Assembly (NCBI GenBank): GCA_963804995.1
Contig: CAWDSK010000005.1
Coordinates: 32,001-96,000, forward strand
Length of the DNA: 64,000 bases
Direction of reading: 5' to 3'
DNA from: an uncultured Acidobacteriota bacterium
Lineage (GTDB): Bacteria > Acidobacteriota > Terriglobia > UBA7540
A program made the position numbers and the translations under genes. This document shows positions 45,115 through 48,855 of the stretch, piece by piece; the first letter of the stretch is position 1, and each line of letters begins with the position of its first letter. Under the pieces are notes generated by a model, which made no database searches, was not told the DNA's origin, and worked only from the letters and a program-made list of their open reading frames with translations.

Positions 45115-45142
45115 TTGCAATTATGGGGCCGGTCGGTATAAT
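45115..45142 (+). promoter_or_regulatory. Sigma70 promoter of the tRNA-tuf operon
   Basis: TTGCAA-N16-TATAAT, 15 nt before tRNA-Thr. Confidence 0.75.
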
Positions 45143-45157: not shown

Positions 45158-45233
45158 GCTGGCGTAGCTCAGCTGGTAGAGCATCTGATTTGTAATCAGA
45201 GGGTCGGGGGTTCAAATCCCTTCGCCAGCTCCA
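45158..45233 (+). tRNA. tRNA-Thr(TGT)
   Basis: Cloverleaf, CTGAT-TTGTAA-TCAG anticodon arm, GGTTCAAATCC, encoded CCA. Confidence 0.97.
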
Positions 45234-45460
45234 GTTTGGGCAAGCGTCGGCATGATTGGATCTGGCGGCGGGTGCCAATCAAAAAAATTGGGGAGCGGGT
45301 TTACCAAAATCTGAAAGTACTCAGGAATGCGCGGGAAGAGGAGTGTCTCCGCGCCCAACCGCATTCTCGATCCACTTAGCTCAAATGGATTCTGTGTCTG
45401 GGGCTGAGCGGAAGCCAGCGCCAGCGCTCGCCAGGGTTCCTGGGACGGAAGAAGCAAATT

Positions 45461-45549
45461 GGACAGGTGGCTGAGCGGTCAAAAGCAGCAGACTGTAAAT
45501 CTGCCGACCCCTGTGGTCTACGGAGGTTCGAACCCTCCCCTGTCCACCA
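45461..45549 (+). tRNA. tRNA-Tyr(GTA)
   Basis: GCAGA-CTGTAAA-TCTGC, long variable arm, CCA. Confidence 0.97.
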
Positions 45550-45654
45550 GTTTGGGACTCGAAACTCGAAACTGGAAATTCGAAACTCGGGGGACGTTGA
45601 AAGTGTGGTGCGCTACGCGAGTTTCGGTTTTCGAATTTCGAGTTTCGAAAAAGG

Positions 45655-45729
45655 GCGGGAGTAACTCAATGGTAGAGTCACAGCCTTCCAAGCTGTTGGT
45701 CGCGGGTTCGATTCCCGTCTCCCGCTCCA
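45655..45729 (+). tRNA. tRNA-Gly(TCC)
   Basis: CAGC-CTTCCAA-GCTG, GGTTCGATTCC, CCA. Confidence 0.97.
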
Positions 45730-45831
45730 GTTCGAAATTCGAAAATGGAAACTCGAAACTCGAGGGCAGGACGGTTCAGTACGAATTTCGGTTTTCGAAT
45801 TTCGGTTTTCGCGCGCCGCAGGGCGCGGCGG

Positions 45832-45907
45832 GCCGATGTAGCTCAGTTGGTAGAGCACGTCCTTGGTAAGGACGGGGTCAGCGGTTCAATTCCGCTCATC
45901 GGCTCCA
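45832..45907 (+). tRNA. tRNA-Thr(GGT)
   Basis: GTCCT-TGGTAAG-GAC anticodon arm, GGTTCAATTCC, CCA. Confidence 0.97.
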
Positions 45908-45934
45908 GAATTTGAAGTACTGGAATCAGGCTGA

Positions 45935-46348
45935 ATGTTGAGTTTGGAAGGAAGACGGCGAGCGAAGGACCATCTAAGCCTGGCTCGCGGTTTCATGGAC
46001 ACGGCGAAAGTAGGGCGTGCATCTTCTGAGTGCGATATTCGCAACGCCTTTTCCCGCGCCTACTATGCCCTGTTTCACGCGTGTTATGCATTGCTGCTGG
46101 GCCAGGGTAACGAGCCGGACTTGGTGCAACAGATTGCCAGGGATCATGGCCGCTTGCAGTCGAAGGTACGGCATCCCATGGGAAGGCCGTTTGAACACTA
46201 TGTAAGGGAAGCCTACGACCGGCGGCGGCAGTCTGACTACGAACCTGATTGGCCTGTGCCGTCGGCCACGGTTGCGCAAGAGGAGCTGAAGCGGGCAAGA
46301 GAGCAGTTCTATTGGGTTTTTCACACGACTCTGCGAAGTTTGGTGTAG
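45935..46348 (+). CDS. HEPN domain protein (UPF0332-like)
   Basis: RNAFSRAYYALFHACYALL and RRRQSDY motifs. Confidence 0.85.
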   Translation: MLSLEGRRRAKDHLSLARGFMDTAKVGRASSECDIRNAFSRAYYALFHACYALLLGQGNEPDLVQQIARDHGRLQSKVRHPMGRPFEHYVREAYDRRRQSDYEPDWPVPSATVAQEELKRAREQFYWVFHTTLRSLV

Positions 46349-46369
46349 TCACTGCGCTTGGAATTTGCC

Positions 46370-47242
46370 ATGACCGTCATTGATCTGGAACAATCCGTTC
46401 GTGGCGCGCTGCAAGAGGCGGGGCTCCTGCAGCTTCTGGATGAGGGTCAGACACAGTTCCTGGAGTTTCCGGACGGTTGGTTTGCCGAGATTGTTGTCAA
46501 AGACGGTTCCCGGCTGGCGGAGGTGGAGAAGGTTGTTGAAAGATACAAGGAGCGTCTGCGGCGCAATGATGATGGCGAACTTGATGAAATTGTCCGGCCC
46601 ATCTGGAGGATTGCAAAGATTGAACGCGTGGGGCCAAGTGTCAGCCTTCCGGCACTGGAATCGGCCATCCGTTTTAGGGTTGTGCTCCAGTCTGGGGACC
46701 TAAGCTGCGATGTTAAGGTCGACTTTACCGAGGGCGCGCTCAAGTTGATGCGCAAGAAACTGCGCGAGACGAAAGCGCCCGAAGATATGGCCTTAACAGA
46801 GATTGTCCATGAGTTCATGAGCCTGCAGTTAGCCCAGGGCGGGAAGAGTTTCTGGGATCCGCGCCGCGATTCGCGCCTCGAACTTGATGCGGGTGCTTTC
46901 ATGGCCCTGATGGGTCGCTGGGATTCGGTCGAGCACCTTAAGGCGTCCATCGACGCTGTTTTCAAGGCTCCTGAACCTATGACGACCATTCGTAACTTCC
47001 TGACGTTGGTATCGATGGGAGGTAGAAAGGCCCGCGATTTTGAAAGCGTGCTGGTTGATTTGCCGGGTCCGGGCGGCGCATTTCGTCCCGGCGACAAGCT
47101 GCCCACCAGCAACCACGAGTTGTACTCAACCCTCCTCGATTCCGAACGTGAGGTCTTGAGAAGGTATTATTGGGACCATCTTGAAAGAGCCAAAACTGAA
47201 TTTCCAGAGTTGAAGGAGCAATTTCCCAACGTGTTGAACTAG
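46370..47242 (+). CDS. Hypothetical protein (~290 aa)
   Basis: Long ORF with globular composition exactly filling the gap between the HEPN gene and tuf. Confidence 0.8.
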   Translation: MTVIDLEQSVRGALQEAGLLQLLDEGQTQFLEFPDGWFAEIVVKDGSRLAEVEKVVERYKERLRRNDDGELDEIVRPIWRIAKIERVGPSVSLPALESAIRFRVVLQSGDLSCDVKVDFTEGALKLMRKKLRETKAPEDMALTEIVHEFMSLQLAQGGKSFWDPRRDSRLELDAGAFMALMGRWDSVEHLKASIDAVFKAPEPMTTIRNFLTLVSMGGRKARDFESVLVDLPGPGGAFRPGDKLPTSNHELYSTLLDSEREVLRRYYWDHLERAKTEFPELKEQFPNVLN

Positions 47243-47258
47243 CTGAGGAACGGAGACT

Positions 47259-48449
<1,191 letters not shown>

Positions 48450-48531: not shown

Positions 48532-48681
48532 ATGCGCGAAATCATTACGCTACAGTGCGGCGATTGCAAGAACCGCAACTACTCGTCGACGAAGAACAAG
48601 AAGAAGAATCAGGACCGCCTGGAGATCAAGAAGTTCTGCCCCTCGTGCCGGCACCATACGGTCCATAAAGAAGTAAAGTAG
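48532..48681 (+). CDS. rpmG: 50S ribosomal protein L33 (zinc-binding form; absent from the ORF track)
   Basis: [24 protein letters not shown]...[17 protein letters not shown]. Confidence 0.97.
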
Positions 48682-48779
48682 GCAGTCGGCAGAAGGCAGT
48701 AGGCAGCAAAAGGACAACGACGGCAGGAGTTCAAGGATCGCTGCTTACTGCCTTCTGCTTACTGCCGACTGGTTTTCAC

Positions 48780-48855
48780 AGGGGCGTCAGATTAACGGCT
48801 AATCTGCCGGTCTCCAAAACCGGTCATGGGGGTTCAAATCCCTCCGCCCCTGCCA
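48780..48855 (+). tRNA. tRNA-Trp(CCA)
   Basis: CCGGT-CTCCAAA-ACCGG, GGTTCAAATCC, CCA; typical position before secE. Confidence 0.93.

Follow-up and report, generated by a model that had tools for sequence, protein, structure and literature searches.

A HEPN gene and a two-module partner recur upstream of tuf in Terriglobia: a candidate toxin-antitoxin-like cassette

The window considered here is a 64,000-nt stretch of contig CAWDSK010000005.1 (assembly GCA_963804995.1) from an uncultured acidobacterium of the class Terriglobia. Within it, two adjoining + strand genes lie between a cluster of four tRNA genes and tuf, the gene encoding EF-Tu. The first (ORF A, 45935..46348) encodes a HEPN protein of 137 aa of the UPF0332 type (PF05168). 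The second, gene B, encodes an N-terminal domain (NTD, 46370..46912) and a C-terminal domain (CTD, 46913..47242, including the stop codon). The NTD is an alpha/beta domain of approximately 185 aa that belongs to no known family and carries the motif GGxS(Y/F)WDP. The CTD is helical, spans approximately 105 aa and has homologues in other Terriglobia that are small proteins in their own right, encoded directly before tuf. On balance, the pair is probably a toxin-antitoxin-like or defence cassette that is anchored upstream of tuf and has a new partner that is not a small nucleotidyltransferase (MNT).

This reading begins with direct observations: the anatomy of the locus, the modularity of gene B, the linkage to tuf, the matching clades of HEPN and NTD, the patchy distribution and the genes that neighbour the copies away from tuf. 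The pair looks like a toxin-antitoxin-like cassette tied to a translation operon because it recurs at tuf in many soil acidobacteria. Two small, co-oriented and adjoining genes that travel and evolve together and have a patchy distribution also correspond to the generic picture of a toxin-antitoxin module. The original prediction took the two genes for a single uncharacterised module, of the toxin-antitoxin or defence kind, and this has gained partial support. HEPN and NTD travel together and fall into the same clades in separate trees, and copies away from tuf lie among toxin-antitoxin and abortive-infection genes. What had not been noticed is that B is two fused modules and that the CTD is elsewhere a resident small gene of the tuf leader.

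Recurrence at tuf and anatomy of the locus

The pair is not a one-off insertion, because it recurs at both tuf loci across the class. Among 401 genomes of the class, gene B is matched in 13 and the NTD in nine. The order tRNA cluster, HEPN, B and tuf is found in G334, G166, G004, G298, and G350, and G306 has fusA, HEPN, NTD, and tuf, which places its pair at the other tuf locus. Nine of the 11 loci in this genome set are at tuf. Contigs of named genomes also yielded 11 loci, all from metagenome-assembled genomes of Terriglobia. In all 11 the tRNA cluster is followed by the HEPN gene and, directly downstream of it, by a gene for the NTD only. tuf is in view downstream in ten, and eight have a separate CTD gene (frameshifted in L057) in a gap of approximately 450 nt before tuf.

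A metagenome scan gave 80 loci, which were found through gene B and are not dereplicated (at least five pairs look identical). Fifty-one of these lie in the tuf operon after the tRNAs, six lie in the tuf operon after fusA and 14 lie elsewhere; the flanks of the other nine are too short to tell. In other words, the tuf operon holds 57 of the 71 loci with readable flanks. HEPN adjoins the NTD wherever upstream DNA is readable, bar one locus. Surveyed through the neighbourhoods of the partner's homologues, the association with HEPN holds up well, with the two adjoining in 11 of 11 named genome loci and HEPN intact in 59 of the 80 metagenome loci. Of the 57 tuf-operon loci, nine have a CTD fused to the NTD, 29 have it as a separate gene and 19 show none; tuf is visible in 13 of these 19, where the CTD is truly absent. 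The 14 loci off tuf are all of the fused type, with 28-36% identity to the window's B. At two loci counted among the 51 (L173 and L174), HEPN-NTD lies between tRNA-Tyr and tRNA-Gly and the CTD still adjoins tuf. Therefore, HEPN-NTD moves independently of the CTD. At L005 (G298:C256, 1376-1483), only the first 36 tuf codons are matched after the module and rpmG lies approximately 300 nt further on, which is probably an assembly collapse between two tuf copies and not a real truncation.

What if the place before tuf reflects function and not hitch-hiking? This is the main rival explanation, and on the whole an unlikely one. HEPN, NTD, and CTD would then be translation-linked accessory factors that process or survey the tRNA-tuf transcript or tRNAs, or that bind and regulate EF-Tu. 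The use of both tuf loci in the metagenomes (51 versus 6, making up 57 of the 71 readable loci) and the nine of 11 loci in the genome set speak for it. So do two loci away from tuf (L119, 1557-2978, and L181, 674-3358), in which the fused module ends approximately 100 nt before valS, the gene for valyl-tRNA synthetase. However, HEPN and NTD are found together in only nine of the 401 class genomes and are absent from eight of 12 operons in the window's own genus. This patchiness counts against a translation role because a core translation function should not be so dispensable. Furthermore, genomes of one genus carry different clades of the pair, and copies off tuf lie among toxin-antitoxin and abortive-infection (Abi) genes.

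The operon itself is a familiar one. In E. coli, the thrU-tyrU-glyT-thrT-tufB operon has four tRNA genes and then tuf, followed by secE/nusG or rpmG. The window has the same four tRNA identities ahead of tuf, and most relatives searched have no insert. The difference is that one to three protein genes stand here between the last tRNA gene and tuf. The expectation that the tRNAs normally run straight into tuf was well founded, since eight of the 12 same-genus operons have only a 90-178 nt spacer at this place.

On the + strand, ARAGORN places the cluster at 45158..45907, with tRNA-Thr(tgt) at 45158-45233, tRNA-Tyr(gta) at 45461-45549, tRNA-Gly(tcc) at 45655-45729 and tRNA-Thr(ggt), which has the anticodon GGT, at 45832-45907. 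The HEPN gene begins 27 nt past the end of tRNA-Thr(ggt). Gene B ends at 47242 and has two candidate starts, TTG at 46358 and ATG at 46370. The ATG, which gives a protein of 290 aa, is the likely start because homologues begin MTV.DLE. The tuf ATG at 47259 is 16 nt past the gene B stop codon, and tuf (47259..48449, + strand) encodes an EF-Tu of 396 aa. These tRNA and open reading frame (ORF) coordinates agree with the co-oriented pair and the spacings first described. A GAGGA/GGAG ribosome-binding site is present in the spacer before tuf; as read from the sequence, this site is strong and those before HEPN and B are weak. Downstream of tuf the conserved operon continues with rpmG and tRNA-Trp (48532..48855, + strand) and then secE and nusG. 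On comparative grounds, HEPN and B are real genes because they have 25 and 36 homologues respectively, with many invariant columns.

A promoter-like site, TTGCAA-16-TATAAT, precedes the cluster at 45115..45142 on the + strand; it agrees with the consensus at 10 of 12 positions and is a consensus match only. No terminator-like site was found on the + strand between 44800 and 49300. HEPN and B are thus placed where read-through from a tRNA promoter would be expected, as had been proposed. When the locus was checked again it also bore out the earlier description in showing no integrase-sized ORF between the tRNAs and tuf and no direct repeats flanking the insert. The GC content is 0.55-0.57 within the insert and 0.53-0.60 in the flanks, with no shift.

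Two further features of the tRNA cluster were seen. The inter-tRNA spacers at 45550-45650 and 45730-45830 contain short repeats rich in TTCGAAA/CTCGAAA, including a 14-nt tandem at 45782-45809. The spacer part (positions approximately 76-157) of a 253-nt query matched dozens of other sites in same-genus genomes, which suggests a small dispersed repeat. The last two tRNAs also change places: the window's family has Thr(tgt)-Tyr-Gly-Thr(ggt), whereas f10, a sister family of the same class, mostly has Thr(tgt)-Tyr-Thr(ggt)-Gly (loci L016-L044 compared).

The HEPN protein and its two-module partner

The product of ORF A matches the Pfam HEPN profile PF05168 with 27.5 bits (cut-off 22; E 3.9e-6) over profile positions 2-110 of 117, and a whole-genome Pfam scan gives it 27 bits. 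Its nearest solved relatives by sequence are 9xbd and 9xbc, each labelled "HEPN domain-containing protein" (E 6.6e-9 for 9xbd), and the UPF0332 protein AF0298 (2hsb). The literature searched had no relevant paper on 9XBD. The SRxYYAxFH motif of helix 2 and the Rx3DY motif align residue for residue with 9xbd and 2hsb. Judged by profile and alignment, ORF A is a true member of HEPN-T (PF05168). It has 25 close relatives among 5.8 billion proteins, and this clade of 25 is seen solely with the NTD as partner. In an alignment of 24 of these sequences the invariant residues are E32, R36, N37, S40, R41, Y43, Y44, H48, H71, G72, R97, D101, Y102, W106, and P109. Two of them deserve mention here. Table 1 of Anantharaman et al. 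(2013; PMC3710099) gives PF05168 as having D in place of the conserved H and states that another conserved H may contribute to activity. H48 and H71 are both invariant in this HEPN family, beside this pattern.

The window's genome contains a second HEPN gene (L100, G000:C6:1747091-1747453). It is more canonical, with 89.6 bits for PF05168. Two candidate upstream ORFs have no Pfam match at E <= 0.001.

Gene B is a different matter. It has no match in Pfam, NCBIfam, PADLOC or PHROGs (in Pfam, none even at E <= 1 to AbiEii, PF08843), and its profile finds nothing under E 0.15 among PDB sequences. The claim that the partner belongs to no known family therefore stands, after fold searches as well. 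It has 36 close relatives. A profile of 23 B homologues, run against 1.84 billion representatives, found 218 proteins at E <= 0.001, and these come in three forms: full-length, approximately 185-200 aa (profile positions 1-185, the NTD) and approximately 105-120 aa (profile positions 185-291, the CTD). As read from these forms, gene B is a fusion of two modules, NTD and CTD. It was also considered whether the CTD might be a second HEPN domain. This was rejected because hhalign finds no similarity between the CTD and HEPN. In two other proteins (P0181 and P0187) the CTD stands behind a xylose-isomerase-like TIM-barrel region (PF01261, E 1.7e-5, below cut-off; P0187 alone was scanned).

Structure prediction gives a confident NTD. 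The AlphaFold model of full-length B has a pLDDT of 84, and the NTD alone has a pLDDT of 95 and a pTM of 0.87, with secondary structure in the order helix, hairpin, helix, hairpin, hairpin. No match to the PDB was found by Foldseek for the full-length model at E <= 0.001. A wide VIA-align search with the same model reached a best Z of 7.8, over residues 4-81 only, and a second realignment gave the same. For the NTD-only model, the best VIA-align Z was again 7.8 (4alz_A, 63 residues) and the best Foldseek match had E 4.7e-3 and a TM-score (TM) of 0.14. The best fold matches (Z up to 7.8) cover B residues 1-83 only, which form a helix-hairpin-helix-strand unit. This unit resembles many small alpha+beta domains, including the KH-like domains of KhpB, Era, uS3, and RimP. 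As far as these models can be compared, all gene B fold matches are background, at the level of common arrangements. The ESM Atlas gave no usable match for the NTD. Its matches for a CTD-only protein were set aside, as recognition fell under the tool's mark and the matches were unrelated small clusters. A prediction of the HEPN-NTD complex scored 0.01 and 0.00 with controls not run; it gives no verdict and is used neither way.

The KH-like resemblance bears on the translation-linked explanation. The best alignments of the first 80 NTD residues are with RNA-binding KH-like domains (KhpB, Era, uS3, and RimP; Z 5.6-7.1), a point in its favour. However, these matches are at background level and reflect a common arrangement.

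A further explanation keeps the pair close to type VII toxin-antitoxin systems. In the original prediction the N-terminus of B was suggested to be a degenerate nucleotidyltransferase (NTase) fold, and if so the NTD would be a very diverged NTase of the Pol-beta type that modifies Tyr102 of HEPN. One clue is that this residue of the Rx3DY motif is invariant in all 24 HEPN proteins, and the motif tyrosine is given as the acceptor of nucleoside monophosphate (NMP) in HepT/MntA systems in the part of PMC11586414 that treats them. Another is that weak Foldseek rows include OAS1, TdT, Pol mu, Pol lambda, and JHP933 (E 0.005-0.16). However, those rows have a TM of 0.09-0.25 and root mean square deviations of 16-21 A, and the idea found no support. 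No Pol-beta-type NTase is among the 50 best VIA-align rows, either in the wide searches or in the second realignment. The NTD has no Pfam NTase match, and its family has no conserved GS...DxD motif and no invariant carboxylate triad; its invariant residues are only R80, W83, G162, W166, and P168. The window's B lacks the motif G[SG]x9-13Dx[DE], which is found in five of 23 full-length and two of 27 NTD sequences, at non-homologous places. The order of secondary-structure elements in the NTD also differs from that of the NTase core. An NTase fold for the NTD is therefore most improbable. The same results uphold the earlier statement that the partner, at 290 aa and with neither a match to an NTase family nor the motif, is not an MNT.

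How does the pair compare with known HEPN systems? It shares with the HEPN-MNT (HepT/MntA) systems of type VII a small HEPN gene with a co-evolving partner, the co-oriented two-gene layout, a conserved Tyr in an R...Y motif and a patchy distribution. It differs in that the partner is not an NTase and lies 3' of HEPN, whereas an MNT has the motif GSX10DXD, is usually encoded 5' and counters toxicity by nucleotidylating the HEPN tyrosine. The motif is Rx3DY and not RX4HXY, and the address before tuf is nearly fixed. Membership of UPF0332/HEPN-T (PF05168; AF0298 2hsb, 9xbd/9xbc) is evident from the aligned SRxYYAxFH and Rx3DY motifs. In the sections of PMC3710099 that treat such members, these pair or fuse with MNTs or cluster with restriction-modification genes, whereas the window's clade occurs only with the NTD. 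The closest precedent for a non-MNT protein in the place of the MNT is the dyad of a HEPN protein (MAE_18760 family) with ParA/Soj, in which the MNT is replaced by an unrelated predicted antitoxin (Anantharaman et al., 2013; PMC3710099). That dyad differs in partner family, HEPN family and gene order, and no linkage to tuf is described in the relevant part of that article.

Gain, loss and copies away from tuf

Twelve genomes of the window's genus yielded the operon. Eight are empty, with a spacer of 90-178 nt. One has HEPN and a fused B (G776), one has HEPN and the NTD only (G767) and one has the CTD only (G773). In the last (G302), the remnant of a decayed CTD sits in a spacer of 400 nt. Seven further families, each sampled in one genome, have a spacer of 31-232 nt with no CTD match. 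The window and G776 are 52% identical in HEPN, 77% in the NTD and 30% in the CTD, and the visible part of tuf is identical.

Trees built separately for HEPN and NTD contain the same groups: {G004,G166,G298}, with support of 100/100 in both, {G000,G776,G334}, {L052,G767,G306}, and {L059,L060,L061}. In both trees, the window's genome (G000) and G776 are apart from G767 of the same genus, and G767 groups with the fusA-side copy of G306. This placement is in keeping with sequences having passed between lineages and from one tuf locus to the other. The second tuf of the window's genome (G000:C6:442187-443374, L098) is 99% identical to the window's tuf, lies approximately 55 nt after fusA and has no insert. 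A third tuf paralogue, 36% identical, is found at G000:C5:338041-338880. Cassettes on the fusA side and on the tRNA side showed no junction sequence in common. With att-like repeats, a GC anomaly and a shared junction all missing, nothing points to site-specific integration. Instead, we infer that the module spread by homologous recombination via the conserved flanks.

Several of the neighbourhoods away from tuf are typical toxin-antitoxin or defence contexts. In G248 an IS30-like transposase flanks the pair on one side and an AbiU2-type HEPN gene with a trypsin-like peptidase on the other. Elsewhere the pair is found among ParE, Phd/YefM, ParD-like and PIN genes (L122), adjoins a HipA-like kinase and DUF3037 (L126), or precedes the gene for a SocA/Panacea antitoxin-domain protein (L147). 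In L180 the module lies between clpB-like and cupin, glutaredoxin and peptidase genes, and in G310 it follows kduI-like and deoxyhypusine-synthase-like genes.

HEPN is not always preserved. Of the 80 metagenome loci, 59 have an intact HEPN gene and five have one cut off by the start of the contig. In four HEPN is split (L133, L134, L155, and L165) and in two it is present as a fragment (L175 and L176), with the NTD ORF whole in these six. One locus has an intact NTD and no HEPN (L138), and six have too little upstream DNA for HEPN to be judged (L116, L154, L156, L169, L173, and L181). Three loci (L115, L147, and L149) have a single HEPN match that stops short of the profile's end. This asymmetry would suit a toxin that is lost first, although searching through B biases the count and some cases may be assembly errors.

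Decay could be read in another way. Perhaps the module is a functionless passenger whose remnants persist since deletion between the tRNAs and tuf is risky. The split HEPN genes would agree with this, as would the decayed CTDs: a remnant in the 400-nt spacer of G302 (L066, 1755-2154), which covers profile positions 50-104 only, a copy interrupted by TAG (L011, G124), and the L057 copy, which is split over two frames. However, both ORFs of the window are intact, full HEPN genes are present in 59 of the 80 metagenome loci and many columns are invariant. Moreover, deletion at this site is evidently tolerated because empty sites are common. A decaying passenger is therefore improbable.

The stand-alone CTD and what the module may do

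The CTD leads an existence of its own. Its profile finds matches in 30 of 401 genomes of the phylum, and 28 of these fall in the 33 sampled genomes of f10. In all 28 the CTD ORF directly follows the tRNA cluster, and tuf is in view downstream in 27. One f10 CTD protein has at least 1069 relatives (clusters at 90% identity) at E <= 0.001. Those that bear names, from Granulicella, Tunturiibacter, and Edaphobacter, are all annotated "hypothetical protein". Stand-alone CTD proteins have no match in the family libraries. Fourteen CTD-only genes have a median dN/dS of 0.22 (66 pairs, median dS 1.4), and of 0.13 over the last 20 codons. Therefore, the CTD gene encodes a protein under selection and is more than a leader sequence. 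Its presence after the tRNA cluster in 28 of 33 f10 genomes, with this dN/dS of 0.22, also speaks for the translation-linked explanation.

The CTD is found in yet another setting. In G046, a 419-aa AbiEii-type NTase (L095, G046:C268, 293-1549, - strand; Pfam 32.7 bits) has a CTD at its C-terminus (hhalign probability 96%, E 2.6e-9, 103 columns). The upstream 204-aa ORF has only weak helix-turn-helix matches, and the 5.3-kb contig has no tuf or tRNA gene. The CTD is thus common to two systems of the toxin-antitoxin type, because this AbiEii-family protein ends with it. In this respect, the window's module resembles the type IV AbiE system (AbiEi/AbiEii). It differs in that the window's B has no AbiEii match and the window has no AbiEi-like gene.

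These observations allow a distinctly unlikely but coherent explanation in which the DNA just ahead of tuf serves Terriglobia as a dedicated place for conflict modules to dock, with the CTD as the cause. The CTD would normally be a small tuf-leader protein, an adaptor linked to EF-Tu or the ribosome, which was captured by several effectors: the NTD, the AbiEii nucleotidyltransferase and the TIM-barrel proteins. HEPN-NTD-CTD would then survey translation by monitoring the state of EF-Tu or the tRNA-tuf transcript, and the HEPN RNase would be released when infection or starvation disturbs that state.

The favoured explanation remains that HEPN and the NTD are cognate partners in a two-gene toxin-antitoxin or abortive-infection module. 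HEPN (UPF0332/HEPN-T type) would be the harmful, RNA-directed component. B occupies the place of the MNT and most likely acts by binding HEPN directly, so as to neutralise or control it, and not by nucleotidylation. The module is probably transcribed by read-through from the growth-rate-controlled tRNA promoter, and the weak ribosome-binding sites of HEPN and B would hold protein levels low. Its history may be one of gain, loss and exchange, both among lineages and from one tuf locus to the other, probably through recombination via the conserved tRNA, fusA, and tuf flanks. In the window, B appears to have absorbed a third module, the CTD, which is a separate tuf-leader gene in other Terriglobia. 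A more speculative idea is that a neutraliser dependent on growth-controlled transcription could let the module fire at host shut-off.

A number of points do not sit easily with a toxin-antitoxin or defence role. One is the fixed address beside an essential gene (57 of 71 loci), which is atypical of toxin-antitoxin genes and also fits a translation-linked role. Another is that the CTD, alone in 28 of 33 f10 genomes and under purifying selection, resembles a housekeeping gene. The HEPN motif is not canonical either. All 24 HEPN proteins have Rx3DY, the pattern RX4HXY matches one of the 24 and the window's protein is not matched. As stated in the passage of PMC11586414 on this motif, the canonical form that RNase activity requires is found in class I HEPNs only. 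HEPN comes first in the window, the reverse of the MNT-HEPN gene order described in the pertinent part of PMC3710099. PADLOC-DB 2.0 gives HEPN only a weak HEPN_IX match (E 0.012) and gene B none. Viral contigs yielded no relative, with plasmid and phage record collections outside the search. Finally, the HEPN decay count is biased by the recovery of loci through B.

HEPN two-gene modules are of a known kind. Three features appear to be undescribed: the partner family, the architecture of three modules that may be split or fused, and the near-constant position ahead of tuf, which holds at both tuf loci and across the class; no description of a HEPN-B module was found in the literature searched, which did not cover subscription journals. 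A whole clade of UPF0332-type HEPN proteins has exchanged its MNT for a protein of unknown fold, so a different means of controlling HEPN would be needed. The cassette also has a nearly fixed address, with both tuf loci used, in one of the most conserved and most strongly expressed bacterial operons. If it is a toxin-antitoxin or defence module, this would show how such a module can be wired to growth-rate-controlled transcription, and how it might spread with universally conserved genes as homology arms and no integrase. A by-product is an unnamed, conserved family of small proteins whose genes lie between the tRNAs and tuf in Acidobacteriaceae, a group that is abundant in soil but has had few of its genes characterised. 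If the adaptor explanation is true, this family would be a new conserved small protein tied to EF-Tu.

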